64,000 nt of DNA from a virus (lineage: Duplodnaviria > Caudoviricetes). Shown piece after piece: positions 16,987 through 31,225 of the stretch. Numbering within the stretch: the stretch's first letter is position 1; each line of letters starts with the position of its first letter. The stretch covers positions 1 to 64,000 of IMG/VR virus record IMGVR_UViG_3300033067_001757; one strand, given 5' to 3'. Position numbers and translations under genes: made by a program. The notes beneath the pieces are model-generated. The model did not search any database. It worked only from the letters and a program-made list of their open reading frames with translations, and had not been told where the DNA came from.

Positions 16987-16992
16987 AAATTG

Positions 16993-17076: not shown

Positions 17077-17082
17077 ATACTG

Positions 17083-17169: not shown

Positions 17170-17174
17170 ATTAG

Positions 17175-17251
17175 TAGCCCGAGTCGGAGTCGAACCGACA
17201 GACGATCAATACATCCTAAGTGTATCCGCTTTCCCGTTTGCGTACCAGGCC
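17175..17251 (-). tRNA. tRNA-Leu(TAG), short variable arm
   Basis: ATACA-CT TAG GA-TGTAT, GTCGGTTCGACTCCGAC. Confidence 0.9.
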
Positions 17252-17253
17252 AT

Positions 17254-17288
17254 AAAAACAAAAAACCCTCACCGGTTAAATGAGGGCT
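17254..17288 (-). terminator. attenuator terminator A
   Basis: AGCCCTCA-TTTAACCGG-TGAGGGTT then TTTTGTTTTT, ending 2 nt before tRNA-Leu. Confidence 0.85.
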
Positions 17289-17322
17289 AAAAAAAAAAAT
17301 ATCTCTTAGTTTAGTACATACC

Positions 17323-17391
17323 TCATCCCCAATTATCGTCCAGATAACTTAACGAACTCAAGGAGAGATATAGATTAATATTGTGTTTCAT
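17323..17391 (-). CDS. leader peptide A, MKHNINLYLSLSSLSYLDDNWG (Leu/Ser/Tyr sensor)
   Basis: ATG..TGA, 22 aa, 11 consecutive L/S/Y codons; lies between promoter and terminator. Confidence 0.85.
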   Translation of the reverse strand: MKHNINLYLSLSSLSYLDDNWG

Positions 17392-17395
17392 AATG

Positions 17396-17427
17396 CGAAG
17401 GTAGCTATAATTATTGAGACTACCAAA
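17396..17427 (-). promoter_or_regulatory. Bacteroidota sigma-A type promoter of tRNA array A
   Basis: TTTG-N20-TACCTTCG, 4 nt before the leader ATG. Confidence 0.7.
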
Positions 17428-17499
17428 TATAAATATACAGAGGTCTACAAAAACGATTAAAATAATTACCATTGTTCATCCCAGTTTTTATTTGCATGT

Positions 17500-17931
17500 T
17501 TGTATAATTTATGTGATAATAAATATTGGAGATGTACAGAAAATATCTATTTTTGTAAAATGAAATTATTTATAATTATAATAATCACTATTCTCGTGTT
17601 GATGGTATTACCCATTATTATCCATGAACAGTATTATGGAGAACCGGTTTCATATGGTCATTATTATCTACAGAAGAACTATAAAGACGCTTCTGCGTTG
17701 TTTACTATATTGACAAAAAAAGATACCGATATATTTCTATGGTGCTGTGATTGTATTTTATTCTATGCAAAAAAACTAAATGTATCATATGAAGAATTGA
17801 ACATATATGTTTTCATCATATGGCAACCATATCTGATAATTTTATTTGGATACTTGTATATATCAGTATTGATTAAAAACATCAAACTTCGACGAAAGTT
17901 GCATCAAACAATTCCAGTAACAAATCCGTAA
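17500..17931 (+). CDS. membrane protein (true start may be the later Met, MKLFIII)
   Basis: Two TM segments, SYEELNIYVF motif. Confidence 0.6.
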   Translation: MYNLCDNKYWRCTENIYFCKMKLFIIIIITILVLMVLPIIIHEQYYGEPVSYGHYYLQKNYKDASALFTILTKKDTDIFLWCCDCILFYAKKLNVSYEELNIYVFIIWQPYLIILFGYLYISVLIKNIKLRRKLHQTIPVTNP

Positions 17932-19288
17932 GATTTTCTCGTATTCTTACAACTGGTTTACCATTTTTCATTTTAACTACAATTTTACCGTCTGCACCAA
18001 CGGTATAAACAGGTTTAGCTACATGTGATCCATGTTTAGCCGACTTGTCATCATCGTCTTCTTTAGATTTAATATTAGAAACAGTATCTACTTTTTTCGA
18101 TACATCTGGTGTAGGAGAAGATCCTGTAGTTGTGACTGATTTATTTTTGTCTGGTTTAGATTGTTTACTGGTAGCTATATCTCCAAAAGAATCTTTTGAT
18201 TTTTTGTGTTTAGTACCTTCTTTACCAGCCATCATATTAGACGAAAGAGTGATAGTGATCTTTTTTCCTTTAGATGAGGTGTCTGGATTTTCAAGATAAG
18301 CAATATGTCTTACGGCCTGATATGGTGTAGCATTATCTTTTTTCATAACATACACAATTTTCTCCATATAATTCATATCTTTTAGATCATCTGATGTCAC
18401 TGTCTTAGAAGCACCTTTTGAAAAATCATATGTATCTGTAATTGTGTATGAACTATCTGCGTTTTTTTGATACGTAAACCTTCCCAATGTAGTTGCTACA
18501 CCGAATGCATCATTTGATGTAAGAGTTTTAAATGCTGTTGTGAGTGTACTTGGTCCGACATTATTTGCATATATATTCGCAACATCTCCACCATAATCTT
18601 TATATTCGGTAGCACCACGATTAACTTTACCTGTACGCTTAATGGCATTATTTATAACATCTGCCATTATTTTCTTCTGAGCCTTACTAAAATCTTTACC
18701 TGATAAGTCTTTAGTCAAATATAACTGTGCAACGTTTGGAAAAGCCTTTCTGATATACGAAGAAACACCGGAAGCTATTTTATCACCTATACCAGAATTA
18801 GCTTTATTTGTAGAATCAAATTCAGCTTTACCGGCTTTGCCAGTACTATCTATAGTTATTTTATTACCCGTGGTTGAAAATACATCTCCATTACTGATGC
18901 GGCAATTAAAAATGGCCAATTTTTTAGCAGCGGTAGCAGCTTTTTTAAAGTCTGTAGGATTAGATTTTTTAGCAATATTCTTCTTTACCGTTATATGAAA
19001 ATCTTTCTTTTTATCAACTTTCTGTTCCATATCCTTGTAAAGAGAATCGATATCCTGTGGACTCATTGAATTAAGCTTGTTACCAAAATTAGTCTTGCTT
19101 ATATTTTCTATGTCCTGTTTGTGTGAATTATCCATCTGAGATAACTTCACTCCTCCTATAGATAAAGAACTTAAAAACAAGCTTAGTCCGGAAAAAATAT
19201 TTAAAAATAATCCTTCCTCAATATTTTCTTCATTTTCCGGTATTTTTAGTAAATCTAATTCTTCAAGTAATTTAGTAAATGTTTGCAT
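17882..19288 (-). CDS. Lys/Ser/Asp-rich protein, possible virion internal protein
   Basis: 468 aa ORF; N-terminal LLEE motif; C-terminal motif shared with 14430-15230. Confidence 0.75.
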   Translation of the reverse strand: MQTFTKLLEELDLLKIPENEENIEEGLFLNIFSGLSLFLSSLSIGGVKLSQMDNSHKQDIENISKTNFGNKLNSMSPQDIDSLYKDMEQKVDKKKDFHITVKKNIAKKSNPTDFKKAATAAKKLAIFNCRISNGDVFSTTGNKITIDSTGKAGKAEFDSTNKANSGIGDKIASGVSSYIRKAFPNVAQLYLTKDLSGKDFSKAQKKIMADVINNAIKRTGKVNRGATEYKDYGGDVANIYANNVGPSTLTTAFKTLTSNDAFGVATTLGRFTYQKNADSSYTITDTYDFSKGASKTVTSDDLKDMNYMEKIVYVMKKDNATPYQAVRHIAYLENPDTSSKGKKITITLSSNMMAGKEGTKHKKSKDSFGDIATSKQSKPDKNKSVTTTGSSPTPDVSKKVDTVSNIKSKEDDDDKSAKHGSHVAKPVYTVGADGKIVVKMKNGKPVVRIRENLTDLLLELFDATFVEV

Positions 19289-19327
19289 ATATAATATAAA
19301 TATAAGAAATATCCCAAATTAATTCGG

Positions 19328-19399
19328 GGTATAAGGTCGGTAACGGTCCGACTTCTTCTCCTTCACAGGGAGACGCTTCACTTTAAAGCTTCAAACACC
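19328..19399 (-). tRNA. tRNA-His(GTG)
   Basis: TCTCC-CT GTG AA-GGAGA, G-1:C73; two T-T mismatches in the acceptor; T loop ACCGTTA. Confidence 0.8.
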
Positions 19400-19409
19400 A
19401 TGTTTCAGA

Positions 19410-20090
19410 TTATTTCCTTTTGAAACGTTGCCAATAACCTTTAGGTGGTTTATCAACGTTTAATTTATGATATCTTCTTCGAACAGTATTCGCTGAAACC
19501 TTATACATCTTTGCAATATTATTTAATGAAAACTCCCATATTAATTTACTCAATTCTTCATCTGAAATGATAAATTTTGGTTCATATATTCGCTTACTCT
19601 TATTATCAACCTTGATCTTTTTATTATTTCGTCCGGCGAAAGTATTAGTTTGTCTGTGGCAGTTAGGGCAAAGAAATCTCAAATTTTCAATTTCACAATT
19701 AGTCCAATCCCCATCTATATGATCAATATCTAAAGTTATATATTCATCTAACCATTTTGACAAAGTACATACACCACACTTATATTCAAAACCTTTCTCC
19801 AGCAAAGCTCGTTTTAATGTTTTATGGTTCACTCTATATTCCTTATTCCTTGTGAGAATATCATCCGCTTGTATCCTTTTTTGATAATTAGGATTTCTTT
19901 TTCCGGCATATACACTTTGTCCTAAAAAATGTGAAACATCTATATCATATTCTTTTATACGATTTCTAATTAATTCATAACTACCACCAGATGCTCTGGC
20001 TCCCAATCTTCTGCAAACATCGGCATATGTTATAGATTCTTTCACAACCGATTCTATAAGTTCTCTTGTATAAGTCCTCTTAGTTGACAT
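19410..20090 (-). CDS. HNH homing endonuclease
   Basis: CGVC ... LDIDHIDGDWTN ... NLRFLCPNCH. Confidence 0.92.
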   Translation of the reverse strand: MSTKRTYTRELIESVVKESITYADVCRRLGARASGGSYELIRNRIKEYDIDVSHFLGQSVYAGKRNPNYQKRIQADDILTRNKEYRVNHKTLKRALLEKGFEYKCGVCTLSKWLDEYITLDIDHIDGDWTNCEIENLRFLCPNCHRQTNTFAGRNNKKIKVDNKSKRIYEPKFIISDEELSKLIWEFSLNNIAKMYKVSANTVRRRYHKLNVDKPPKGYWQRFKRK

Positions 20091-20159
20091 TATTATATTT
20101 ATAATAAATATCAGAGAGGTATAAGCGAAATTTAAAAAGAATGCACTTATACATTATAG

Positions 20160-20230
20160 ATGTCCCGCTTCGAATTGAACGAAGATCACAAGATTCAAAT
20201 TCTTGTATAATACCATTATACCACAAGACA
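20160..20230 (-). tRNA. tRNA-Gln(TTG)
   Basis: TGTCTTG/CGGGACA, CAAGA-AT TTG AA-TCTTG. Confidence 0.85.
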
Positions 20231-20236
20231 ATTTTG

Positions 20237-20308
20237 AGCCCAGTACCGGTCTCAAACCGATCTCTTCTGATTACAGGTCAGTTGCTTCATCAACAAAGCT
20301 TACCAGGC
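20237..20308 (-). tRNA. tRNA-Thr(TGT)
   Basis: GCCTGGT/ACTGGGC with C2-G71; CTGA-CC TGT AA-TCAG (C33). Confidence 0.78.
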
Positions 20309-20314
20309 TAAAAG

Positions 20315-20386
20315 TAGTACCACTTGGAGTCGAACCAAAACCTTCTGTTCTTCAGACAGACGCGCAGACCACTACGCCATAGCACC
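20315..20386 (-). tRNA. tRNA-Phe(GAA)
   Basis: TCTGT-CT GAA GA-ACAGA, GGTTCGACTCC. Confidence 0.9.
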
Positions 20387-20392
20387 ATATAG

Positions 20393-20465
20393 AAGTGGAA
20401 GAGGAACTCGAAGCCTCGCGTACCGGGGTTGCAATCCGGAGCATTACCATCTTTGCTATTCCACT
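20393..20465 (-). tRNA. tRNA-Cys(GCA)
   Basis: AGTGGAA/TTCCACT, U73, CCGGA-TT GCA AC-CCCGG. Confidence 0.87.
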
Positions 20466-20471
20466 ATGTTG

Positions 20472-20542
20472 CAAGGGATACCCGAATCAAACAGGTACCA
20501 ACTGGGTTGGAAGCAGTTGTACTATCATTATACTAATCCCCC
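20472..20542 (-). tRNA. tRNA-Trp(CCA)
   Basis: GGGGGAT/ATCCCTT, G73, ACTGC-TT CCA AC-CCAGT. Confidence 0.82.
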
Positions 20543-20550
20543 GTAAAAAT

Positions 20551-20643
20551 AACACACAAGGCCAACGACTCTCTCGTTGTGGATTCGGTAGAGCTTAGTA
20601 ACCTCATGCTTACATAAGTCGTATGCTCTCACCTTGTATGTCC
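20551..20643 (-). ncRNA. unidentified three-way-junction RNA inside tRNA array B
   Basis: Closing stem ACATACAAGG/CCTTGTGTGT; inner stems AGAGC/GCTCT and CAACGA/TCGTTG. Confidence 0.5.
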
Positions 20644-20646
20644 TCG

Positions 20647-20720
20647 TCGAGATTTAAGGCATCGAACCTTACTGATATCTTGGTCCCAAACCAAGTGACC
20701 CACCTTGAGTCCGAATCTCG
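20647..20720 (-). tRNA. tRNA-Pro(TGG)
   Basis: CGAGATT/AATCTCG, CTTGG-TT TGG GA-CCAAG. Confidence 0.9.
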
Positions 20721-20727
20721 ATATAAT

Positions 20728-20757
20728 AAAAAACCCCGAAACATTTCTGTCGGGGCT
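20728..20757 (-). terminator. attenuator terminator B
   Basis: AGCCCCGA-CAGAAATGTT-TCGGGG then TTTTTT, 7 nt before tRNA-Pro. Confidence 0.85.
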
Positions 20758-20785
20758 ATTAAACTTATGTTAGATTATAGATGTT

Positions 20786-20881
20786 TTACCATCCCATTCC
20801 ATCATACATATGTTTGTCCCCACCGAACGGTTGTGTCGGCCAGAAGGTAAATTGACATGTATGTGTAAATGTGTTGTTCAT
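20786..20881 (-). CDS. leader peptide B, MNNTFTHTCQFTFWPTQPFGGDKHMYDGMGW (Thr/Phe/His/Cys/Gln/Trp/Pro sensor)
   Basis: ATG..TAA, 31 aa, A-rich upstream context, 16 consecutive codons from the seven amino acids of array B. Confidence 0.88.
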   Translation of the reverse strand: MNNTFTHTCQFTFWPTQPFGGDKHMYDGMGW

Positions 20882-20896
20882 TGTTTTGTTTTTTAA

Positions 20897-21105
20897 AAGA
20901 TAAACAGCCGTCAAATCCCGCTGAAGTTATCTATTGTTAAAGTGTAACAGGGATCGCTTCTTTCAGCGTCAGACATACAAGATGTTCTGTTACAAAGAGT
21001 AATCGTGATTCGTGGTACACTTTTAAGTGCCTTCGCTCAAACGTCCTGGACGTACAATTACTAAAATTTAGATAATCACCAATACGTTACCGGTGAGGTT
21101 ATCTG
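20897..21105 (-). ncRNA. unidentified multi-domain structured RNA upstream of leader B
   Basis: Four consecutive stems: AGATAA..TCACC/GGTGA..TTATCT, AGTAATTG/CGATTACT, TGTAACAG/CTGTTACA, AGATAA/TTATCT; no ORF in the track. Confidence 0.45.
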
Positions 21106-21122
21106 TTAATAAATATCAAAGA

Positions 21123-21362
21123 CTATTGTAAAACGGTTATTGCTCTTGCGTACCTACCATAATTATCGTTTACAGAACCGGTTCGGAATGCTATATTCTT
21201 TTCACCGAGTCCAACCTCGTATTCTTTTAAAGACATTGTCAGTTCTTCAAATATCCGTTTCTGTCTCTCAGGATTTAAATACATAAAAACATAATATGTT
21301 TTACAATGATCACACTGTTCTGGACACTTACTATTTCCTTCGATATCACGCTGGCATTTCAT
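21123..21362 (-). CDS. hypothetical Cys-rich protein
   Basis: 79 aa, directly after the promoter at 21372-21403. Confidence 0.55.
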   Translation of the reverse strand: MKCQRDIEGNSKCPEQCDHCKTYYVFMYLNPERQKRIFEELTMSLKEYEVGLGEKNIAFRTGSVNDNYGRYARAITVLQ

Positions 21363-21371
21363 AATATGAAG

Positions 21372-21403
21372 CGAAGGTAGTATTTAATTAGAGAACTTCC
21401 AAA
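21372..21403 (-). promoter_or_regulatory. Bacteroidota sigma-A type promoter
   Basis: TTTG-N20-TACCTTCG. Confidence 0.65.
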
Positions 21404-21404
21404 T

Positions 21405-21695
21405 TTATTTTCCATTCATCTTGCCCAGATATACACCGAGACTATCCTTCAATTGCAGACTTTGTACCGTCAGGTCATTAATCTGGAGACTGTAGATCAG
21501 TACAGAATCAATCTTCTGCGCTTTACCGGCATCGATCATCAGCTTCGTCTTATCAATAATTTGGAATGCGTTTTGAGTCAGAGCCAGGGAATAATAATTT
21601 ACCTGCTGCAGGTTGTATGCACCTTGTGTTGAGGATAGTACTGAGCATGACCCAAGGATGAATGGGATTACGAGTAATGTGATGAGTTTTTTCAT
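21405..21695 (-). CDS. lipoprotein
   Basis: MKK + hydrophobic stretch + LGSC lipobox. Confidence 0.75.
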   Translation of the reverse strand: MKKLITLLVIPFILGSCSVLSSTQGAYNLQQVNYYSLALTQNAFQIIDKTKLMIDAGKAQKIDSVLIYSLQINDLTVQSLQLKDSLGVYLGKMNGK

Positions 21696-21786
21696 AGATG
21701 AAAATTTGTATTAATATTTGTATATATAAATATCAAGGAGTCTATATTCTGGCAGCAGAATGGGATTTGTGTCGGAGATTAGTATG

Positions 21787-21859
21787 TGGAAAACAGTTGA
21801 TTCGAACAACATCTCCCGGTTTGCAAAACCAGTGCTTTTGCCAATTAAGCTATGCTCCC
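21787..21859 (-). tRNA. tRNA-Ala(TGC)
   Basis: G3:U70, CTGGT-TT TGC AA-ACCGG; bulged acceptor with a 4-bp T stem. Confidence 0.85.
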
Positions 21860-21865
21860 ATTATG

Positions 21866-21938
21866 TTGAAGAAGTGAATTATGCTATCACAACCTCTGAA
21901 GTATCAGTTCAGCGCTCTGACTGTTGAGCTATTCTTCA
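21866..21938 (-). tRNA. tRNA-Ile(GAT)
   Basis: TGAAGAA/TTCTTCA, CTGAA-CT GAT AC-TTCAG; atypical T loop. Confidence 0.85.
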
Positions 21939-21945
21939 ATGTATG

Positions 21946-22018
21946 TTGTCCCTACCGGTTATGATCCGGTTACCTAATGATTATGAGTCATTTGCTCTAC
22001 CGATTGAGCTAAGGGACT
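21946..22018 (-). tRNA. tRNA(CAT), Ile2 (lysidine) or elongator Met
   Basis: AATGA-CT CAT AA-TCATT; lacks the three initiator G-C pairs. Confidence 0.85.
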
Positions 22019-22068
22019 GTAAAACAGAATAAAGAGTTGCGCATCGTTGAGAGGTTCTTACTCTAATG

Positions 22069-22142
22069 CGGACTATACCGGTAACAATCCGGTCATCTCT
22101 CCCGTGACAGGGGAGCGTCTTCATCGTGCAGACTCATAGTCC
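22069..22142 (-). tRNA. tRNA-Asp(GTC)
   Basis: GGACTAT/ATAGTCC, G73, CTCCC-CT GTC AC-GGGAG. Confidence 0.88.
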
Positions 22143-22147
22143 TTATG

Positions 22148-22220
22148 TATCCCCAATGGAATTCGAATCCATATCATCTCATAGAAAGTGAGATATCCTA
22201 AGCCATTAGACGATGGGGAC
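22148..22220 (-). tRNA. tRNA-Glu(TTC)
   Basis: GTCCCCA/TGGGGAT, TCTCA-CT TTC TA-TGAGA. Confidence 0.88.
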
Positions 22221-22289
22221 TGGTTGGCATCCTAAACTCCCGTGCAAGGGATAAACCTGGCCATTTAGGTTTTGTTCTACCGGCAACCA
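22221..22289 (-). ncRNA. unidentified long hairpin abutting tRNA-Glu
   Basis: Nested stems TGGTTG/CAACCA, CCTAAA/TTTAGG, TCCC/GGGA. Confidence 0.35.
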
Positions 22290-22306
22290 CAAGTGTCTGG
22301 CACCAG

Positions 22307-22519
22307 CTACTTCCATTGTGTCTTTCTGTTATGCTTCCAGGACTTGTATTGTCTCACCTGGTACATCATAAGCTCTTTACGTTTCCATCTCCTTACTGGG
22401 CTGCTACGGTAGTAATTTACACCTTCGTCCCAGTATCTGTCCATGAACTTATCATTAGTCACAATCTTATATTCCTTTCTGCAGGTTGTGTGACTACTGA
22501 TACTTCTGTGTGGTTTCAT
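22307..22519 (-). CDS. small basic protein within the tRNA array
   Basis: 70 aa, Arg/Lys/Trp-rich, ends KSWKHNRKTQWK. Confidence 0.7.
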   Translation of the reverse strand: MKPHRSISSHTTCRKEYKIVTNDKFMDRYWDEGVNYYRSSPVRRWKRKELMMYQVRQYKSWKHNRKTQWK

Positions 22520-22537
22520 TGTTGTAGGTTTTAGTAC

Positions 22538-22564
22538 CTACAAGAAATCGTATGTTTTTTTCAT
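22538..22564 (-). CDS. 8-aa upstream ORF MKKTYDFL
   Basis: Its TAG lies in the 5' arm of hairpin TTGTAGGT-ACTAAA-ACCTACAA just upstream of the next ATG. Confidence 0.5.
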   Translation of the reverse strand: MKKTYDFL

Positions 22565-22627
22565 AACGTAAATAATGTTTTACATGGTATACCCATCTGT
22601 GTAAAAGATATTTTACAAACATATCCA

Positions 22628-22897
22628 TTATTCTAAATCTGGATACTCACTATAAAAACTAAGCTCATACATATTTTCACCGGTTTTTATCTGTCTGTAA
22701 TATAAATAATCAGGTGATATACCTTTATAATTAACCCTGTTAGCATAAACAGAATCCTTTACGAGACCTGTTTCGGTTATGTTCATATTTTCCAGATACT
22801 GTTTTTCATTACGAAATTTTTCAATCACATCAGGATTAGCACTCTTTAAAAAACTCGCATTGGCCAACGTTGAATCAATCTTTTCAAGTCTTGTCAT
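22628..22897 (-). CDS. hypothetical protein; N-terminus resembles the ValRS C-terminal tRNA-binding coiled coil
   Basis: LEKIDSTLANASFLKSANPDVIEKFRNE resembles the ValRS motif KLxNxxFxxxAPxxVVxKE. Confidence 0.5.
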   Translation of the reverse strand: MTRLEKIDSTLANASFLKSANPDVIEKFRNEKQYLENMNITETGLVKDSVYANRVNYKGISPDYLYYRQIKTGENMYELSFYSEYPDLE

Positions 22898-22980
22898 TGT
22901 GAAATAAATTTAAAAGAAGCTACCAGAGCTACGTGTTTCTTTTTGTTCCCGTTCCTGGTCTTCGCTAAAGCTTCTCTAAT

Positions 22981-23028
22981 TGGAGCCGAGGGGCAGTGTG
23001 CCCACTGTGCATTCCCTTTCAACTCGGC
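22981..23028 (-). ncRNA. tRNA-like minihelix ending in encoded CCA
   Basis: GCCGAG ... CTCGGC T CCA, 48 nt, no anticodon arm. Confidence 0.4.
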
Positions 23029-23608
23029 ATGTAAATTTTAGGATAAAGATAATCCTCTCGAACCCCTACCAAATCCAATATTTTTACCACAAAATGTATC
23101 CGTTTGTGTGTGACAATTTGGACATAATAATCGAACATTATCAGGAAAATTATTACCGGAATCACCATCTACATGATCAACCTGTAAAGTGATAGGCTTT
23201 TCATTCCATTCAAAAATTCCACAAGATTCACAGTTATATCCTCGTTCATAAGCAATTAGTTTCCGTAATGTATTCCGTTTATTAATCTGCCCATTTTTAT
23301 ATTTAACTAATGATACAGTTTCATGCATATGAATTTTATGACATTTAACACTGCAAAATTTATTGCTTTTATTTGACTGGGAGACACATGTTTTTCCGCA
23401 GATTATACAATCGAAAAATTTCTTTGGTTTCTTATTTTGTTTGCTCGCACAACTTCTTGAACAATGTTTTGGAAATTTACTCTTCTCTAACTGTGTTGGT
23501 GTTAAAGATACGCTATACTCTTTGTTACATCCTTTACAATGGCAACTATATACCCCTTTGCACAAACTTTTTAGAGAACTTATCAAATTTATCGTCTTTT
23601 AGTGTAGA

Positions 23609-23899
23609 TTGGTACTTTCAAAAAATAAATACTGCTATATGAAAGTTCTAAAGGAGTATATTACTTATGAAGGTAAAAACTTTGGTGAATCAATTAACGA
23701 TGGTATTGCACAAGTTGAGATTATTAAATTAAGTGAAAAGCTTTCAAGTTTTACCAAAGATATATTTAATTCAAAAACTGGTTTTATTGATATAAAATCA
23801 AATGGTGCAATTGAAATTGAAGACTTTCCCGATGATCTGCAAAATTCTATCATAGACTATCTTAAAATTTCCAAGGATAATCATTATACGAAACCTTGA
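23609..23899 (+). CDS. IS passenger, hypothetical protein
   Basis: ORF inside the TIRs; probable start at MKVLKE. Confidence 0.55.
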   Translation: MVLSKNKYCYMKVLKEYITYEGKNFGESINDGIAQVEIIKLSEKLSSFTKDIFNSKTGFIDIKSNGAIEIEDFPDDLQNSIIDYLKISKDNHYTKP

Positions 23900-24037
23900 G
23901 CCTTATATCTTTATCATATAAAATTCTAACAATCTCCCACAAAGACGTTTTTTGTTCTTTTGTTAAGTGACAAGTAACTTCAATGGGTATACCGATAACT
24001 TTGGTTACTTTGAATTCTTCGGTGTTTATCATGAATA

Positions 24038-24238
24038 CTAATTAAGTAAATTTACTCCACCGTTACGGTAAATAGAAGAATCAAATTCTTTAATACAATC
24101 TCTTATCATATTAATTTGAGCATAATCGGATGTTTCCATTGAAATAATCTGATTAATTAAAGAACAACACTTTTTTGATTTTGATTCCAAACTTTGCTTT
24201 ACCGAGACTATATCCTTTTTTACATTCTCTAATTCCAT
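24038..24238 (-). CDS. IS passenger, hypothetical protein
   Basis: 66 aa, preceded by the ATATTTATA motif. Confidence 0.5.
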   Translation of the reverse strand: MELENVKKDIVSVKQSLESKSKKCCSLINQIISMETSDYAQINMIRDCIKEFDSSIYRNGGVNLLN

Positions 24239-24294
24239 ATACTTTGTTTTAGTATATATAAATATATAGAGGTAGTGATTATCAAATTAAAATA

Positions 24295-24492
24295 TCAGAA
24301 AGCGTATATGTAAATAATTATAATCATACCGATTATAGTTGCAAAATTCATCCACACCATTATAGACTTCTCTTTCATCTTTTCTTTACCACTAATAGCA
24401 TTTCTGGTATTTTTTAAAGCTTCTTTCAAAGAGGTCATTCCGTAGAATATCAGACTTATTACTATTAATAAACCGATGAGAATATATGGCAT
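24295..24492 (-). CDS. IS passenger, two-TM small membrane protein (paralog of 10962-11153)
   Basis: Shared GKEK-containing loop between two TM helices. Confidence 0.6.
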   Translation of the reverse strand: MPYILIGLLIVISLIFYGMTSLKEALKNTRNAISGKEKMKEKSIMVWMNFATIIGMIIIIYIYAF

Positions 24493-24549
24493 GGTAAAGA
24501 ATTGGATAATTAAAATTGACGGTACTGATATTTATATGAAAGTACAAAT

Positions 24550-24750
24550 ATGATAACCTCTTTTGATGAATTAGAATCCCAAGGCGCTAAATTCTATTAT
24601 GACCCGCATCAAGATAAGGAAATTGACCCACCTCACTATTATGCAATTGATAATAAATGTTGGACACTTATTAATATAGATGAAGATGGAACTCCGGAAT
24701 ACATGGGAATACAATTTGAATTGATCGCGTATCCAGAATTATTTACTTAG
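24550..24750 (+). CDS. IS passenger, small acidic protein
   Basis: 66 aa, preceded by GATATTTATAT. Confidence 0.55.
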   Translation: MITSFDELESQGAKFYYDPHQDKEIDPPHYYAIDNKCWTLINIDEDGTPEYMGIQFELIAYPELFT

Positions 24751-24973
24751 TTTTTTCAACTTCACTCATTGAGTATTCGACAAATTCGTTTTTAGTATTT
24801 TTAAATACATGTTTGTATACTTTTTGAAATTGCTTTTTGGATTGGTCTACATAAATTAAAATTTCACCTGTTTCTTTAAGTTTAAATTTATCACCTGCTT
24901 TAATAACAGTCTCTGTAGATTTTACAATGTTTACTTTCTTGCCAGCCCTAATACGTATTTTAAATGTTTAAGA

Positions 24974-25714
24974 TTAATCCTTAACGCAACGAACAGAAAA
25001 GCCCCAGGTCTTTTGAATCTCGTCCGCGTAGATGGTGCCACCGCCATAGTTTATGTAGTGGTACCAGGCGTAGTTAAGCAAGGTATACTCCGTAGTACTC
25101 CACCAGAAACCTGTGATACCAGCACCGTAGAAAGATTCGATGTAATAATCATTGAAGTGATGGTAGCCACCCGGAAGCGCTGTGAATCCGCTGCTGTTAG
25201 TAGCATCGGCGTTAGGGGCATACCATAAACCGGTCCCAGCTTCTATGGTTCCGGTTGATTTCATCTTGCCACCCGCTACTGCATAGCCGCCTAAATAAGT
25301 AGATAATGTTGTCCATTCTGCCTCACTTGGTACATGCCAACCTTCAGGGGCTAGTCCCCTTGGATCATGTACAGCATACCAGTTGTATAACTTGCCATAA
25401 ACAGCACCCGTGGCAGAATCGTTATTGTACCAGCACCATGCACCGGTAGTTAAGGAAGCCCATTTGTGACGGTCTTTTACCTGTGGTATCTTGTCCCCAT
25501 TTCTGTAACGGGTTACGTCAAGGTTCTTTTTCATCCAAACTTGAGTACCTATTCTAACAGTGTTACCAGCAAGAACTTTATTATCGTTAAGTACATCTTG
25601 GCTTATACTTTCACTTGTAATACCTGAAGTTTGAACGGTGCTGTTTTCTTTTTTACAGGAGATTGATAGTGATATCAGCAAAGCTGAAATACTTATTGTG
25701 ATTATTGTTTTCAT
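24974..25714 (-). CDS. FISUMP (Fibrobacter succinogenes major paralogous) domain lipoprotein
   Basis: SISC lipobox; IGTQVWMKKNL, YGKLYNWYA, PEGWHVPS..EW, SGFTALPGG, GFSVRCVKD. Confidence 0.92.
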   Translation of the reverse strand: MKTIITISISALLISLSISCKKENSTVQTSGITSESISQDVLNDNKVLAGNTVRIGTQVWMKKNLDVTRYRNGDKIPQVKDRHKWASLTTGAWCWYNNDSATGAVYGKLYNWYAVHDPRGLAPEGWHVPSEAEWTTLSTYLGGYAVAGGKMKSTGTIEAGTGLWYAPNADATNSSGFTALPGGYHHFNDYYIESFYGAGITGFWWSTTEYTLLNYAWYHYINYGGGTIYADEIQKTWGFSVRCVKD

Positions 25715-25744
25715 TGTAGGTGATATTTATATAAAATAAAGTTT

Positions 25745-25948
25745 ATGATAAAAATAAAGTTTAATGTAGACAAGAAAAAAGAGGGGGATTTAAATGAGAA
25801 AGTTACAATGTCCGTAGAAACTAATGAAATAGAAAATTCTTCTGATACGGCATTGATTGAAAGTATAATACAATGGTCAGCAGAACACCTTGAATATTTA
25901 CAGAAAAAAATAAGTCAATGGAATGATGTTTTAAATCAACCTCGTTAA
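25745..25948 (+). CDS. IS passenger, hypothetical protein
   Basis: 67 aa, preceded by GATATTTATATA. Confidence 0.55.
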   Translation: MIKIKFNVDKKKEGDLNEKVTMSVETNEIENSSDTALIESIIQWSAEHLEYLQKKISQWNDVLNQPR

Positions 25949-26247
25949 ATTGTAGGCAGCATAATACCATTTTCAGACAAGAAATCTGTAAATTTTTTGA
26001 TATGGAAAAAGCCACCACTGACATATAAAAAGTAAACATCCAAGTCGTCTTTGGAAAATCTATCCGAGGTTACTTTTTCATCTTTCAAATTCAATAAAGC
26101 GAGTTCATCAATGTACTTTGCGAACAAATCACTTCTGGACGGAGCTATTATTAGTCTTGCAATCACTAAATTTTTGTTTACACCAACTCTAGTTGAAACC
26201 AGACTTCTTAATTTTTCTTTTATTGATTTTGCTTGTTCTAAGTTCAT
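25945..26247 (-). CDS. IS passenger, hypothetical protein
   Basis: 100 aa, convergent 4-nt overlap. Confidence 0.55.
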   Translation of the reverse strand: MNLEQAKSIKEKLRSLVSTRVGVNKNLVIARLIIAPSRSDLFAKYIDELALLNLKDEKVTSDRFSKDDLDVYFLYVSGGFFHIKKFTDFLSENGIMLPTI

Positions 26248-26359
26248 TTTAAAGGATTTAGTAGCACAAGATACAAAAATCTATTAGACATACTTTAACA
26301 ATATTAGGTAGTACTTTGAACAAAACATGTCTATCTTTGTGTAACAAATAAAGAGATAT

Positions 26360-27286
26360 ATGTTCAACTCATTTAAGAATCTTACAGAAGTTATACTCCA
26401 CTTTTCTACTGATAAAGTTTGCAGGGAATTCTTAGAGACCAAGAGATGGAACGGTACTCCGACCTGTCCTCATTGTGGTTGTGATAAGTGGTATAAGTTG
26501 AATGATGGTAAAACATACAAGTGCGGTAACAAAGAGTGTTACAAGAAATATACCGTTACGGTAGGAACGATCTATGAGAATACAAACGTTCCTCTTACTA
26601 AATGGTTTGCTGCTGTTTATATAATCACCGCTCATAAGAAAGGAATAAGCAGTATCCAGTTGTCTAAAGACATTGGTGTTACTCAAAAGACTGCCTGGTA
26701 TATGAATCATAGAATCAGACAGATGGTTGGAGAAAGGCATCCAGAAGCATTAGAGAACACTGTAGAAGTGGATGAAACCTATGTAGGTGGGAAGATGAAG
26801 AACAAACACAAGAAGGTTAGAGCGGAAGCACATGCTAACAATATAAGCCATACAGATAACAAGACAGGTGTAATGGGTTTCTTGGAAAGAGGAGCAGGTG
26901 TACGGTTAAATGTTATTGATAAAACCAAGACATTTAAAGAAATGGTTAAGGGTAATATTGCTTTAGAAGCTATTGTAATTACAGATAGCCTAAATGCTTA
27001 TACCGGCCTTGCTAAGGAGTTTAAAGGTCATGAGGTGGTTAACCATAGCGAAGATGAATATGTACGTGGTGAGTTCCATACAAACACTATAGAGGGCTTC
27101 TTTTCATTCCTAAAGAGAAGTATCTACGGTTGTTACCACAATGTAAGTCCTAAGCATTTACAGAGATATTGTAATGAGAATAGCTACCGGTACAATACAA
27201 GAGATTTGAAAGATGGTCAGAGATTTGAGATAACTTTGTCTAACATTGAAGGAAGACTTCCATATAAAACTCTAATCGGTAAATAA
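26360..27286 (+). CDS. IS1595 (ISXO2-like) DDE transposase
   Basis: CPHCG..C Zn ribbon, KKGISSIQL, VEVDETYVGG, ITD, HTNTIEGFF, HLQRYCNE..YRYN. Confidence 0.96.
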   Translation: MFNSFKNLTEVILHFSTDKVCREFLETKRWNGTPTCPHCGCDKWYKLNDGKTYKCGNKECYKKYTVTVGTIYENTNVPLTKWFAAVYIITAHKKGISSIQLSKDIGVTQKTAWYMNHRIRQMVGERHPEALENTVEVDETYVGGKMKNKHKKVRAEAHANNISHTDNKTGVMGFLERGAGVRLNVIDKTKTFKEMVKGNIALEAIVITDSLNAYTGLAKEFKGHEVVNHSEDEYVRGEFHTNTIEGFFSFLKRSIYGCYHNVSPKHLQRYCNENSYRYNTRDLKDGQRFEITLSNIEGRLPYKTLIGK

Positions 27287-27460
27287 TGGCAAAGGCAAAG
27301 AAGGCAACAAAGCCTAAAAAGATAAGACAGGAGAACTATGAAACTAAGTTAAAGGTGAATGCATCTTTTGAAGATGTGATAGGATGGAGTGTAGAAGGTA
27401 ATCCTAAGCCAAAGACTAAGCCATTGAAGAAGTAGACTGTAGATATGTTTAAGAGATCAT

Positions 27461-27486
27461 TCCCGCTTTATGAGCGGGTTTTTTTG
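27461..27486 (+). terminator. intrinsic terminator after the transposase operon
   Basis: CCCGCT-TTATG-AGCGGG followed by a T run. Confidence 0.75.
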
Positions 27487-27531
27487 TTTCCTGCAGTGTA
27501 GATGTTGTGAATTTAGTTATATTTTAGATTC

Positions 27532-28020
27532 ATGAATACTAAACGAATAATTGCTATTAGAAAATTAGACAATGTTTTAAAAATTCTATCAGATTCAACC
27601 GAAGCCGAAATTCAAAATAATGTTCCGATTGCCATACTTGACGTTTTTGAAATTAGTGAATTTTATAAAAACGCTCATAAAACTGAATTGAAAAATCATG
27701 AATTTAATCTTATTATAGATAAGTTATTAAAGGATGACTATATATTCAAGGAACAAATTGATAAATCACAACCACCACGATTTGGTATTAACTATATTGG
27801 TTATATATTTAACTCTGAAGGTGGTTATGAACAAAAAATGATTAATGACGACGACGAAAATACGCGGATGGATAAGATAGAAGAGAATCAAAAATTCCAT
27901 AGGCGTGCCCTGACTTGGCTAACATCTCTCGTCGCTGTCGGGACGTTAATAGCTGCGATTTATTATTCAGTAGAACTCTTGAAATATTTTCATGTTTTAC
28001 CTGATCCTTTTCATTGCTGA
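27532..28020 (+). CDS. IS passenger, protein with a C-terminal TM helix
   Basis: 162 aa, possible winged-helix N-part, hydrophobic C-terminus. Confidence 0.65.
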   Translation: MNTKRIIAIRKLDNVLKILSDSTEAEIQNNVPIAILDVFEISEFYKNAHKTELKNHEFNLIIDKLLKDDYIFKEQIDKSQPPRFGINYIGYIFNSEGGYEQKMINDDDENTRMDKIEENQKFHRRALTWLTSLVAVGTLIAAIYYSVELLKYFHVLPDPFHC

Positions 28021-28343
28021 GTTCTATATCTCTTTTCTTAAATAAATTTATAAGCCATTTCATAGTATATTGATTTTTAAAAAGTTGCGAATTCTTGTCC
28101 TAAGCTGTATATAGTTGCCTTTACAATTGAGTGTAATATCTAATCTCTTAACTGTAAACTTCCCATTATTGAATCTTGTTTTATTAAATTCAAAATTCGG
28201 ATTACTGGTACACCTACTAACATGATATGCAAACTGTTGATGTTTATCATAATTTATTATCTCCAAACAATACTTACATCTCTTTTCCATTTATTGCTGC
28301 TTTATAATAAATATCAGCAATGAGTAAAAATGAAAATATTATG

Positions 28344-28415
28344 AGCGATAATGCAGTAACAATCTGCATACCCCGATTTGGAAGACCGGTATGTATTCAT
28401 CAACACCTTTATCGC
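28344..28415 (-). tRNA. tRNA-Gly(TCC)
   Basis: GCGATAA/TTATCGC, U73, CCGGT-CT TCC AA-ATCGG. Confidence 0.87.
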
Positions 28416-28516
28416 ATATACATTTGGCTAACTTTAAAATCTTATACTCAGCCAAAACTATCTTCCAACGTTACCCGGACCAGACGACCGACTGCCTGGA
28501 TCCGGGGTTTCGTTTG

Positions 28517-28593
28517 TGGTTGCGAAGATCGGGTACGATCCGATAGTCTCAGGGATATGAGCCCCGTGTGTTCTCCATTTACACCACCTCACA
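28517..28593 (-). tRNA. tRNA-Met(CAT), initiator-like
   Basis: CGGGG-CT CAT AT-CCCTG (three G-C pairs), T1-A72, encoded CCA. Confidence 0.85.
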
Positions 28594-29134
28594 ATTTTAT
28601 TAAACCATTATCAAACTCCCAATGACAATTAGGACATAATCCTATTAAATTATCTATATGATTGATTATAGAAATCAGTGTATAATCATCAAAATCAGAT
28701 ACAGCTTTAATGTGTGCTATTTCAAAATGCTTATCATACCCACATAAATAACAACATTTAGATTTATCACTGCGATAGTAAGTCGCTTCGGCATGACTAC
28801 GTATTGACGATCGAGCACTCTGCCAATTTTTCTGTGTTTCAAATATGTTACCTTTTGTTCTATATATTAAAAGATCGGCTCTCTCTTTTTTAGGTGGCTT
28901 TTCTTTTACTTTTATAACTCTCACTCTCTTTTTATTATTAAATATTGCTGCACAAGATCTTGAACAGAATTTTTTTACTTTGGTTTCGGCGGGTTTTCTA
29001 TTATCTGGAATCATAATCATTTCATTACAATTCAAACAATAATTAGGATTCGCATAATATTCATCTACCCTTTTCTTTCTAATAATCGGTGCCATTTTCT
29101 GACCACCCATTGCGTGTGCGTGTTTCGGTAACAT
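28589..29134 (-). CDS. HNH homing endonuclease
   Basis: FCSRSCA, CYLCG..EIAHIK..NHIDNLIGLCPNCHWEFD. Confidence 0.92.
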   Translation of the reverse strand: MLPKHAHAMGGQKMAPIIRKKRVDEYYANPNYCLNCNEMIMIPDNRKPAETKVKKFCSRSCAAIFNNKKRVRVIKVKEKPPKKERADLLIYRTKGNIFETQKNWQSARSSIRSHAEATYYRSDKSKCCYLCGYDKHFEIAHIKAVSDFDDYTLISIINHIDNLIGLCPNCHWEFDNGLIKL

Positions 29135-29244
29135 ATAGTTCTTCTATATAAATATCAGATACCTACAATTTCGAATACATTATCCGCAATTATTTTCAAA
29201 GAACTCTAAACTACCTCTCCAGTCCACCCCTGGAATATTTAAAG

Positions 29245-29320
29245 AGGGAAATCTCAGATTCGAACTGAGGATCTTTTGATTAACAGTCAAATGCATTGAG
29301 CCGGACTATGCTAACTTCCC
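29245..29320 (-). tRNA. tRNA-Asn(GTT)
   Basis: GGGAAGT/ATTTCCC, TTTGA-CT GTT AA-TCAAA, CTCAGTTCGAATCTGAG. Confidence 0.9.
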
Positions 29321-29321
29321 T

Positions 29322-29520
29322 TGCGGCTAAGCTTTTAATTACGAGTCTGGCTGTTAAGCCCTCTACGAAGGAGACCATCTACTGATGCTGCTCGACCCCT
29401 ATACGACAGATTTAAACAGGATTGTTAATCCTTTCGGACTGAAAACCGTTTCCCTTTTTAACTACACGCAGAAGAGTAACTGACCTATCTTTGATCACGA
29501 TTCGTGAACTGATAATAATT
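29322..29520 (-). ncRNA. unidentified ~200 nt non-coding spacer, candidate structured RNA
   Basis: No ORF in the track, higher GC than the flanking genes, AGTCC-GAAA-GGATT tetraloop hairpin, CGAG/CTCG stem. Confidence 0.35.
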
Positions 29521-29523
29521 GTG

Positions 29524-29594
29524 AACAGCAATCCGGATTTGAACCGAAACTAAGAAGTTAGAACCATCTTGTGCTTCCATTACACCATAGCTGC
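29524..29594 (-). tRNA. tRNA-Arg(TCT)
   Basis: D stem GTGT/GCAC fixes the register AGATG-GT TCT AA-CTTCT; A20 present. Confidence 0.8.
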
Positions 29595-29604
29595 TTATAC
29601 TTAG

Positions 29605-29676
29605 AAGGCCCTGGGAGAGTCGAACTCACCGTCTCGACGTTCGTAGCGCCGGATCCTTCCATTGAACGAAAGGCCC
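29605..29676 (-). tRNA. tRNA-Arg(ACG)
   Basis: GGGCCTT/AGGGCCT, CGGCG-CT ACG AA-CGTCG, A20. Confidence 0.9.
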
Positions 29677-29680
29677 TTGT

Positions 29681-29728
29681 TTAATCAAGAGTCCTTCGTC
29701 TTCGGTATATAAGCACTGTGTTGTTCAT
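29681..29728 (-). CDS. internal mini leader peptide MNNTVLIYRRRRTLD (Arg sensor)
   Basis: ATG..TAA fills the Val-Arg spacer; CGA AGA CGA AGG; stop 4 nt before tRNA-Arg. Confidence 0.72.
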   Translation of the reverse strand: MNNTVLIYRRRRTLD

Positions 29729-29741
29729 AATATTTTTGTTG

Positions 29742-29813
29742 TAGTCTCCAGGGATTCGAACCCTACCTCTAACTTTGTAAGAATTAGTTTCTGCCCGAGT
29801 GAATTATGAGACT
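29742..29813 (-). tRNA. tRNA-Val(TAC)
   Basis: AGTCTC/GAGACT, TAATT-CT TAC AA-AGTTA, AGGGTTCGAATCCCT; acceptor/T junction 1 nt short. Confidence 0.82.
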
Positions 29814-29821
29814 GTATTTCG

Positions 29822-29896
29822 TGACCCCGGTGAGGCTTGAACTCACAACCTTTCGGTTAAAAGCCGAAAGCTCTTATCCATTTGAGCTACAAGGTC
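29822..29896 (-). tRNA. tRNA-Lys(TTT)
   Basis: GACCTTG/CGGGGTC, TTCGG-CT TTT AA-CCGAA. Confidence 0.92.
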
Positions 29897-29897
29897 T

Positions 29898-29943
29898 AAA
29901 AAGAAAAAACCCGGTAAGCTCATTTTGGTTTGGCCTCCGGGTT
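29898..29943 (-). terminator. attenuator terminator C
   Basis: AACCCGGAGGC ... GCTTACCGGGTT then TTTTCTTTTT, directly before tRNA-Lys. Confidence 0.85.
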
Positions 29944-29965
29944 CGTATTAGTATCGTGTTATTAG

Positions 29966-30085
29966 TTACTTGCAATCATCTTCTTCACACAATATTTCAG
30001 AACCACAGAGGCGCTTAATGACATTATCATTGCCGCGTTCCGCTTCCATTGATCTTCCAACTATTATGTCTAAACTGTGTTGCAC
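29966..30085 (-). CDS. leader peptide C, (M)QHSLDIIVGRSMEAERGNDNVIKRLCGSEILCEEDDCK (Asp/Ile/Val/Gly/Arg/Met/Glu/Ala/Asn/Lys sensor)
   Basis: GTG..TAA, 39 aa, A-rich upstream; 19 of 20 consecutive codons from the ten amino acids of array C. Confidence 0.8.
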   Translation of the reverse strand: MQHSLDIIVGRSMEAERGNDNVIKRLCGSEILCEEDDCK

Positions 30086-30125
30086 TGAATTTGAATTGTA
30101 TTTGTTTGTTATTAATAAATATACG

Positions 30126-30157
30126 CAAAGCTACAAAAAGATTAGATAACTTCCAAA
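30126..30157 (-). promoter_or_regulatory. Bacteroidota sigma-A type promoter of tRNA array C
   Basis: TTTG-N20-TAGCTTTG, followed by an ATATTTAT motif. Confidence 0.75.
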
Positions 30158-30173
30158 TTTATTTTTAGAGACC

Positions 30174-30392
30174 TCATTTTTCACTTAAACATTTCAGTGC
30201 TGATTCTCTATGATGTTTAATTTCTTTAAATAACTGATTGATATGTTGATACGTTAGAATAACGCTTTGGTTACCTTGATCCAGAGATATACCATCATTA
30301 TAGTATTGTACATTGATTGGTGATTCCCAAACATCGTCTCCTGGATCACCCTGGTAGAATATGAAATTAGGTACTGTGGTTAGTGTTGTCAT
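30174..30392 (-). CDS. hypothetical protein
   Basis: 72 aa ORF, operon packing. Confidence 0.55.
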   Translation of the reverse strand: MTTLTTVPNFIFYQGDPGDDVWESPINVQYYNDGISLDQGNQSVILTYQHINQLFKEIKHHRESALKCLSEK

Positions 30393-30394
30393 GA

Positions 30395-31225
30395 TTATAT
30401 CTGTTTAACAAATTGAGGATACTCCAGCATCAGCTTCTGCAGGTACTCCGGATAATCTGAGATTGGATGAAATTTATAAGACACTCCAGGTCGGTTGAAA
30501 ACATCCTTACCTTTTTCCATGGCCTCTGTGATATTATGTTCGCTGGTGATATCAGGACGATTGAATTCTGTGTGTGCGAAGGATTGTATCTTGGCTTTAA
30601 TGGCTTCTACTGAGCCGCAGTAACTGAAATGCCATCCACCATTCTGAATACGATTGAAATGATTACGGTTGTCACGGAAGTATTGTGGTCCCTTTTCCTT
30701 GAATACTTTACCGGTAGTGATTACAGTACCGTTCCACAAAACGTCGTTACCTGTCTCACACCTGCAATTAAGGAAATAATAGTGAAACTGTTGAACTAAT
30801 GACAACGCTTCTACCTGAGATAGTGCTTGTAATATTTGCTCCTTCTGAGTAATAATGTCTGGTGATGGATATTCATCAAGGTCTGAGATTAGAGTGATTG
30901 CGTCATCGGGGATGATATCCTGTGCTAAGAGTAATCCCATGCGTTGCTGCTGCTCCAAGTACCATGATGAGTTTTCAGGGGAATATGTATCAACCTTATT
31001 GAATACGAGCGTATCATCTGTTTGATCTAACTGCAGATATACAATCTTATTCTTCCACTTGCTGAACCGTTCAATATTCTTTTCGAAGATATACTCTTTG
31101 TAGCCACCAGAATGTCGTCTATTCGATTCACAGACTATAAACAAGTCAACATATTCATCCAATAGTTTGAACCGCATCTCAGCCAAATCAACCTCTTGAA
31201 AAAAGCAAAATGTGTCTATCAGCAT
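30395..31225 (-). CDS. GT17 (MGAT3-like) N-acetylglucosaminyltransferase
   Basis: DTFCFFQEVDL, FIVCES, ISDLDE and GGWHFSY motifs. Confidence 0.88.
   Translation of the reverse strand: MLIDTFCFFQEVDLAEMRFKLLDEYVDLFIVCESNRRHSGGYKEYIFEKNIERFSKWKNKIVYLQLDQTDDTLVFNKVDTYSPENSSWYLEQQQRMGLLLAQDIIPDDAITLISDLDEYPSPDIITQKEQILQALSQVEALSLVQQFHYYFLNCRCETGNDVLWNGTVITTGKVFKEKGPQYFRDNRNHFNRIQNGGWHFSYCGSVEAIKAKIQSFAHTEFNRPDITSEHNITEAMEKGKDVFNRPGVSYKFHPISDYPEYLQKLMLEYPQFVKQI

Follow-up and report, generated by a model that had tools for sequence, protein, structure and literature searches.

A conserved leader element of a phage tRNA-Arg pair and a possible ribosome-gated lock on tRNA maturation

The DNA analyzed here, which we call the window, is the first 64 kb (64,000 nucleotides) of an IMG/VR virus record of 187 kb with a G+C content of 36.7%. 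The family-B DNA polymerase of this phage has its nearest isolate counterpart in Microcystis phage Mel-JY01, at only 35% identity. Shine-Dalgarno sequences are near-absent from the phage genes (GGAG in 4%) and the regions upstream of the genes are A-rich, a combination typical for Bacteroidota and for some cyanobacteria. The phage also encodes a GroEL/Cpn60-type chaperonin (54252-55934, minus strand; PF00118, E 8.5e-68).

The minus strand carries a tRNA array in which tRNA-Lys(UUU) and a tRNA-Val(UAC)-like gene precede tRNA-Arg(ACG) and tRNA-Arg(UCU) (Table 1). In the window (29898-29950, minus strand), the sequence directly before tRNA-Lys forms a terminator-like hairpin with a T run after it, conserved in two of the relatives described below, L006 (~9480-9512) and L010 (~2050-2082); a third relative, L011, has a different hairpin and T run at the same place, suggesting that the array with the Arg unit begins behind a terminator. 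The comparison of positions 16000-31000 with Rfam at E <= 1 matched only the tRNA family, with no T-box and no aptamer. Three more tRNA genes that ARAGORN had missed were found with the Rfam tRNA model (19328-19398, 20237-20308 and 21866-21938, minus strand; 32.6-49.8 bits). The same model gave no match at E <= 1 to the tRNA-Val(UAC)-like gene of the window (29741-29814); an apparently degenerate copy sits at the same place in L006, L010 and L011 possess well-formed tRNA-Val genes, and the copy in the window may be in decay. In the tRNA-Arg(ACG) of the window, the pair G1-U72 is a wobble, the D stem is weak and the T stem contains one mismatch.

The tRNA region is broken up by mobile genes. 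An HNH endonuclease gene (PF13391; 28589-29134, minus strand) lies between tRNA-Asn and a tRNA-Met, and the opposite strand carries a zinc-ribbon ORF of 308 aa (26360-27286, plus strand); the latter is only a size-based candidate, its size resembling that of the IS1595-type transposase called in the related locus L122. On the 3' side of tRNA-Arg(UCU) we observed conserved non-coding islands in the window (29321-29522, minus strand), L010 (3029-3300), L123 (7577-7747) and L006 (10118-10251). They follow the order ACAATTATTATCAGTTCACG, a small hairpin whose stem sequences vary among the variants, and AAAGATAGGTC..CCTTC.GCGTGTAGTTAAAAAGG. The window and L010 share an additional conserved block ahead of tRNA-Asn, and none of these islands matched Rfam.

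Table 1. Positions of the features discussed in the text, numbered along the window.
Feature	Positions	Strand	Basis or remark
tRNA-Lys(UUU)	29896-29821	-	array member
tRNA-Val(UAC)-like gene	29741..29814	-	ARAGORN call; ends 12 nt upstream of the mini-ORF ATG
Mini-ORF encoding MNNTVLIYRRRRTLD	29681..29728, stop included	-	ATG 29728-29726, TAA 29683-29681
Predicted helix 0	UGAACA 29722..29727 (start-codon region) with UGUUCA 29527-29522 (tRNA-Arg(UCU) 3' end)	-	five MFE folds
Invariant 24-nt core GTGCTTATATACCGAAGACGAAGG (codons 5-12)	29693..29716	-	alignment of five variants
Predicted helix A, 5' strand UGCUUAUAU (codons 5-8)	29707..29715	-	fold and alignment
Four Arg codons CGA AGA CGA AGG (codons 9-12)	29693..29704	-	sequence reading
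Predicted helix B	GAA 29701..29703 with UUC 29606-29604 (tRNA-Arg(ACG) 3' end)	-	MFE folds
Predicted hairpin C	29665..29700	-	GACGAAGGACTCTTG (29700-29686) pairs with CAAGGGCCTTTCGTT (29679-29665); 14/15 positions, three G-U, 6-nt loop
tRNA-Arg(ACG)	29604..29676	-	ARAGORN; Rfam tRNA 33.8 bits, threshold 29
Predicted helix A, 3' strand GUAUAAGCA (Arg-Arg spacer and nt 1-3 of tRNA-Arg(UCU))	29592..29600	-	fold, shuffle test
tRNA-Arg(UCU)	29523..29594	-	ARAGORN; Rfam tRNA 46.3 bits; 9 nt after tRNA-Arg(ACG)
Leader B, ~31-codon ORF (MNNTFTHTCQFTFWPTQPF...), then terminator hairpin before tRNA-Pro	20786-20881	-	L010 6383-6478; L122 and L123 upstream of tRNA-Pro

The 64-nt spacer between the tRNA-Val-like gene and tRNA-Arg(ACG) houses a mini-ORF. 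An initial annotation of this DNA had drawn attention to it and to the run CGA AGA CGA AGG that it contains before tRNA-Arg(ACG) and tRNA-Arg(TCT), and we confirmed both the coordinates and the codons. By standard wobble rules, tRNA-Arg(ACG), as ICG (A34 converted to inosine), reads CGA via a weak I-A wobble, and tRNA-Arg(UCU) reads AGA and AGG by standard decoding. By these rules, the four codons are those of both downstream tRNAs, sampled alternately. CGA, AGG and AGA make up 9%, 15% and 41%, respectively, of the Arg codons in the phage.

The initial annotation had also described a hairpin in which the leader takes up tRNA nucleotides 1-12, and the pairing was found as described. In this hairpin C, the 5' arm consists of the last Arg codons and the tail of the leader (the stretch from AGG to the tRNA), the loop (29685-29680) includes the stop codon, and the 3' arm consists of three leader nucleotides followed by nt 1-12 of tRNA-Arg(ACG). 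The further statement that the spacer holds no terminator is essentially right: a terminator scan at the locus flagged nothing but the six innermost base pairs of hairpin C, together with a poor and interrupted T tract inside the tRNA, and L006 lacks such a tract.

We located relatives of this locus through the neighbouring GT17 glycosyltransferase gene and an adjacent 72-aa gene, and one of them (L011) through a metagenome scan with a 20-mer of the core. The resulting set holds five variants from four independent lineages, all metagenomic: the window, L123 (identical to L124, L127 and L128), L006, L010 (identical to L140) and L011 (identical to L185). In the four variants other than the window, tRNA-Arg(ACG) is followed 7 nt later by tRNA-Arg(UCU). 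The initial annotation had made its proposal depend on conservation of the ORF and of the pairing, and both are kept in these four variants. The GT17 homologues in L001-L003, L008, L012, L013 and L133-L139 have no Arg unit beside the gene. The scan of JGI metagenomes with the core 20-mer returned one genuine relative, L011, and another scan with a core 20-mer returned no match. BLASTN of the region against isolate phages gave generic tRNA matches only, and the tRNA 5' sequence, scanned against IMG/VR, produced one chance match in a coding region. Scans with combined motifs were equally unproductive: the Arg box with TATAAGCA gave a single chance coding match, TGCTTATATA with TATAAGCA gave 107 AT-rich chance matches of which none had the core, and the Arg box with an anticodon loop gave 44 matches, none with a tRNA. 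A scan of GTDB genomes found no relative of the Arg unit, and beyond the variants listed no further relatives were found in IMG/VR, JGI or GTDB.

The 24-nt core of the leader is identical in all five variants, and the first 36 nt of the leader show 86-100% identity between lineages, compared with 62-74% for tRNA-Arg(ACG) and 56-82% for tRNA-Arg(UCU). The core occurs only where the Arg tRNA pair occurs and is absent from two related loci without the pair, L009 and L122. Upstream of the leader the neighbours are unrelated: the window and L123 have the tRNA-Val-like gene there, and the other variants have ORFs of 80 aa (L006, lipoprotein-like), 123 aa (L010) and 76 aa (L011). Short ORFs and hairpins are common, and an initial fold that excluded the Arg-Arg spacer gave a z score of only -1.3, both as would be expected of a chance ORF with chance complementarity in an AT-rich spacer. 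The comparative data contradict this explanation, which we regard as scarcely credible: the core is invariant although the tRNAs of the lineages differ by 26-44%, the position of the stop codon is fixed, and the energy and shuffle controls described below are consistent with one another. We conclude that a real, conserved and unusual leader element accompanies the tRNA-Arg pair.

The region is also mosaic. In L123 (7424-7576) a joint lies at the Arg-Arg spacer: its tRNA-Arg(ACG) is 100% identical to that of the window, whereas its tRNA-Arg(UCU) is 99% identical to that of L010 and 82% identical to that of the window, a pattern that suggests recombination inside the conserved AATATAAGCA junction. 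This mosaic structure and the different genes inserted upstream would fit an element that acts as DNA, namely a promoter, a protein-binding site or a junction for recombinational exchange of tRNA cassettes, with the RNA pairing as a by-product; the core and the spacer do form a 9-10 bp inverted repeat that flanks tRNA-Arg(ACG). Such a role leaves unexplained the constraints on frame and stop codon and the adaptation of each tail to its own tRNA. We also rejected a sigma-70 promoter at the core, where no sigma-70-like match was found, and the core occurs once in the 187-kb genome, which argues against a recurring promoter or cassette motif. We consider a DNA-level element quite improbable.

The predicted RNA structure of the locus comprises hairpin C, helices A and B and a tentative helix 0. 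Every variant had hairpin C in both its MFE and its centroid fold. The duplex of the leader with the tRNA 5' strand had energies of -8.8 to -12.5 kcal/mol in the five variants, compared with a mean of -6.4 in 51 control tRNAs of the same arrays, at the extreme of which it lay, and the leader pairing covered 9-12 of tRNA nt 1-12, compared with a control mean of 4.9. When only the tail was shuffled, the native hairpin energy was reached with p = 0.015 in the window (1.5% of trials) and with p = 0.037, 0.076, 0.095 and 0.12 in the other variants. The tail of each variant pairs with its own tRNA 5' strand; in L006, where the tRNA 5' sequence is different, a different tail restores an 8-bp helix with its own tRNA. 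A matrix of cognate and non-cognate pairings between tails and tRNAs showed a clear preference for L006 only.

Helix A joins codons 5-8 of the mini-ORF to the Arg-Arg spacer and the first nucleotides of tRNA-Arg(UCU), and its 3' partner across the variants is (A/G)UAUAAGCA. Its duplex had energies of -10 to -12 kcal/mol (shuffle p <= 0.001), and in 12 other adjacent tRNA pairs, where helix A is absent, the values were -2 to -8. Helix B was found in the MFE folds of three of the five variants (window, L123 and L006) and extends to GAAGAC/GUCUUC in L006. Helix 0 appeared in all five MFE folds but was weak, with -6 to -7 kcal/mol and shuffle p values of 0.04-0.15; L011 keeps it by changed bases, and we only tentatively take it as a real element. 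With the sequence from the leader through nt 3 of tRNA-Arg(UCU), the z scores of the folds were -2.4 to -3.7, with hairpin C and helix A in both the MFE and the centroid structures of the five variants. In this default predicted fold, the flanks of the RNase P cleavage sites of both tRNAs lie in helices, those of tRNA-Arg(ACG) through hairpin C and those of tRNA-Arg(UCU) through helix A.

In the alignment, 95.8% of helix cells formed standard pairs, compared with 35-46% when the partners were slid. Two one-sided changes were seen (U-A to U-G and G-U to G-C). The covariation in related phages that the initial annotation had looked to did not appear, there being no double compensatory changes in the five-variant alignment. 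The 5' strand never varies, which accounts for the lack of compensatory covariation, and the helices therefore rest on complementarity, on the one-sided changes and on the energy controls.

The same annotation had set the hairpin against the tRNA cloverleaf, and in our folds the hairpin prevailed: the leader-paired fold was 9-20 kcal/mol more stable than the cloverleaf, far above the controls. In terms of nearest-neighbour energies, which ignore the tertiary structure and the modifications of tRNA, the cost of forcing the cloverleaf relative to the MFE fold was 19.7, 16.9, 9.6, 9.0 and 9.9 kcal/mol in the five variants. The same cost, calculated under the same restriction, was 2.9 +/- 3.3 kcal/mol in the 51 control tRNAs, of which only two reached 9 or more. 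The window's tRNA-Arg(ACG) alone, without flanks, was a poor cloverleaf in silico (13.5 kcal/mol). The tRNA of L006 alone folded as a perfect cloverleaf, indicating that its entire cost of 9.0 kcal/mol is due to the flanks. The leader-paired fold and the cloverleaf are mutually exclusive in silico.

These folds could also describe an element that works as RNA only, in which the helices formed by leader, spacer and trailer are a scaffold that orders or times nuclease cleavage, or protects a dimeric tRNA-Arg precursor, as the leader-trailer stems of rRNA do, and in which the ORF is incidental. Helix A bracketed tRNA-Arg(ACG) in every fold and remained even when the cloverleaf was enforced. In addition, codons 5-12 show zero third-position variation across the five variants, suggesting selection on the RNA or DNA sequence itself; an element that is RNA only would explain this total invariance of the core too. 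We give this explanation a real, though clearly minor, chance. An RNase III-type stem extends over about two helical turns, whereas the bracketing helix of the phage consists of 9-10 bp and, beyond an internal loop, another 3-6 bp, which is short for RNase III. The features of the reading frame described next, and the match of the four codons to the two downstream anticodons, are also left unexplained by an RNA-only element.

The mini-ORF has 13-15 codons and is present directly upstream of the tRNA-Arg pair in all five variants. Four of the peptides consist of MNNTVLIYRRRR with the endings TLD, FLD, LS and KT, and the fifth of MNILVLIYRRRR with a final T. No variant has lost the ATG. Conservation begins at the A of the ATG in the window, L006 and L010, and in L011, where five of the nine nucleotides after the ATG are changed, the ATG and its distance to the core are nevertheless the same. 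The tails are 16, 16, 13, 13 and 10 nt long, differing only by multiples of 3, so that the reading frame is kept. The first in-frame stop, a TGA in L010 and a TAA in the other variants, always leaves exactly 4 nt between its end and nt +1 of the tRNA, a position for which the chance was 0.019 per independent random tail of the same composition. The TGA of L010 is out of frame within the homologous CTTGATT of the window, and the tail of L006 is unrelated to that of the window, indicating at least three independent tail configurations that arrive at this position. In L006 and L010 the stop codon TGA of the upstream ORF shares nucleotides with the start codon of the mini-ORF (ATGA), and L011 has the arrangement TAG-TT-ATG. 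The alignment thus supports a constraint on the reading frame of the leader, drawn from the tail steps of 3, the fixed stop, the conservation from the ATG and the ATGA overlaps.

The start context of the mini-ORF, without a Shine-Dalgarno sequence, is typical for the genes of this phage, and because these genes rarely have one, its absence is not evidence against translation. The first 13 nt of the leader were unpaired in folds of the unit of leader and first tRNA. In two variants the ATG lies just 12 nt past the tRNA-Val-like gene, leaving little room for binding of the 30S subunit in the window unless that RNA is processed first.

Translation of the mini-ORF need not involve the sensing of tRNA-Arg. 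Any ribosome might act as a helicase that unlocks the precursor, so that tRNA release would follow general translation capacity or the translation of the gene upstream; alternatively, the mini-ORF might serve to make its short basic peptide. The constraints on frame and stop position would hold here as well, the ATGA overlaps in L006 and L010 suggest translational coupling with the upstream genes, and a ribosome at the stop codon would unwind the entire 5' arm of the hairpin. Since every translating ribosome, whether it stalls or not, would open the hairpin, sensing specific to Arg has to be assumed in addition. However, without such sensing the fit of the alternating run CGA, AGA, CGA and AGG to the two tRNAs would be a matter of chance, and the invariance of precisely these codons would be left unexplained, while a functional peptide is argued against by the freely varying C-terminus (TLD, FLD, LS, KT or T). 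We therefore think it unlikely that the mini-ORF is translated without sensing Arg-tRNA.

We propose, at roughly an even chance, that the element is a lock through which ribosomes would gate the maturation of the two tRNA-Arg of the phage; the control by translation and processing is deduced from sequence and folds. During transcription, the leader would pair first: hairpin C would form, and helices A and B would then close. The precursor would be trapped, with the RNase P sites of both tRNAs buried in helices. A ribosome would initiate on the mini-ORF and pause at CGA, AGA, CGA or AGG when the decoding capacity for those codons is low. From the size of the ribosome footprint, a ribosome with its A site at one of codons 9-12 protects approximately codons 4-13. 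A ribosome paused there would cover the whole invariant core, so that all partner strands would be freed together, and the geometry of the footprint fits the mutually exclusive folds. The freed tRNA strands would fold into cloverleaves and then be processed. With quick read-through, the ribosome would terminate 4 nt before the tRNA and depart, and the local hairpin would form again. The net outcome would be a codon-specific feedback on the supply of tRNA-Arg through RNA folding and processing and not through termination of transcription, and the tRNA-Arg pair may mature only when arginine decoding is slow. The interpretation offered by the initial annotation is thus partly supported, by the conservation in silico and by the dominance of the leader-paired fold; what it had missed is helix A to the Arg-Arg spacer, which ties in tRNA-Arg(UCU). 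Searches of the literature found no description of tRNA maturation control of this kind.

The proposed lock shares features with several known systems. As in the leader-peptide attenuators trpL, hisL, leuL, thrL and pheM/pheST, a short ORF with a run of cognate regulatory codons lies upstream of the regulated gene, and a paused ribosome, as proposed likewise for the phage leader, masks one strand of mutually exclusive RNA structures. Unlike these attenuators, the phage leader lacks an intrinsic terminator with its hairpin and U tract; here it is the tRNA cloverleaf that competes as the productive structure, and control would fall on a tRNA, with folding and processing by RNase P as the proposed output in place of transcription termination. 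The translational attenuation leaders of ermC and cat are post-transcriptional, with a ribosome stalled in the leader ORF opening a hairpin that hides a downstream site, as we propose here. In the phage, however, the hairpin hides tRNA nt 1-12 and the RNase P site instead of a ribosome-binding site, no ORF follows, and the presumed stall signal is a scarce cognate tRNA and not a drug with the nascent peptide. No T-box was matched in the phage leader by Rfam, in difference from the T-box riboswitches. Leader-trailer stems of rRNA operons and dimeric tRNA precursors of phage T4 are known arrangements for precursor processing. Helix A is like the former in that a long-range helix of the 5' leader with the 3' flank brackets a stable RNA, but it is short (9-10 bp), invades the acceptor stem of the neighbouring tRNA and overlaps an ORF. 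The Arg pair is like the latter in that its two members lie close together, have no encoded CCA and probably share one precursor. Experiments with a synthetic riboswitch showed that RNase P is blocked when the leader adjoining a tRNA is tied up in a hairpin (PMC7897497). Opening of that hairpin permits maturation, and we propose a parallel for the phage leader; the riboswitch is engineered and opened by a theophylline aptamer, whereas the phage element is natural, has no recognisable aptamer and would have the ribosome as its effector.

A second small leader, leader B, precedes the Pro/Trp/Cys/Phe array together with its terminator. Its changes in L010, L122 and L123 are synonymous and conservative, that is, coding-like, which makes small translated leaders in these arrays plausible. 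The initial annotation had linked leader B to the Arg mini-ORF through their identical first 12 nt. This identity is real, but leader B in the relatives begins with ATGAACACTACA or ATGATTACTTCA and the identity is lost, suggesting that the shared 12 nt are probably incidental and leaving a link by way of them unsupported. A wider scheme is conceivable, and we advance it with some reserve, as somewhat doubtful: the supply of tRNA could be metered codon by codon at two levels, by leader-peptide terminators at the heads of the arrays and by a double lock within the array, where one translated leader would sample both tRNA-Arg species twice and hold the acceptor-strand ends of both, and only a ribosome starved for these tRNAs would release them for RNase P. 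Such a scheme would amount to tRNA maturation that is placed under the control of translation in nature.

tRNA genes are generally taken to undergo constitutive processing, and the element bears on the way in which phages regulate their tRNA sets. Our preferred reading is a variant of leader-peptide control in which the folding and maturation of tRNA would be the target, a reading that is coherent as a model. It is directly testable, because the element is only about 140 nt long and makes clear mutational predictions. If the model is true, the ribosome would report the codon-specific decoding capacity of the cell and decide on the folding and maturation of the matching tRNAs. This would add a new output to leader-peptide control and be the first case in nature to match the engineered RNase P riboswitch, and it would supply a rule for spotting similar locks in other phage tRNA arrays.
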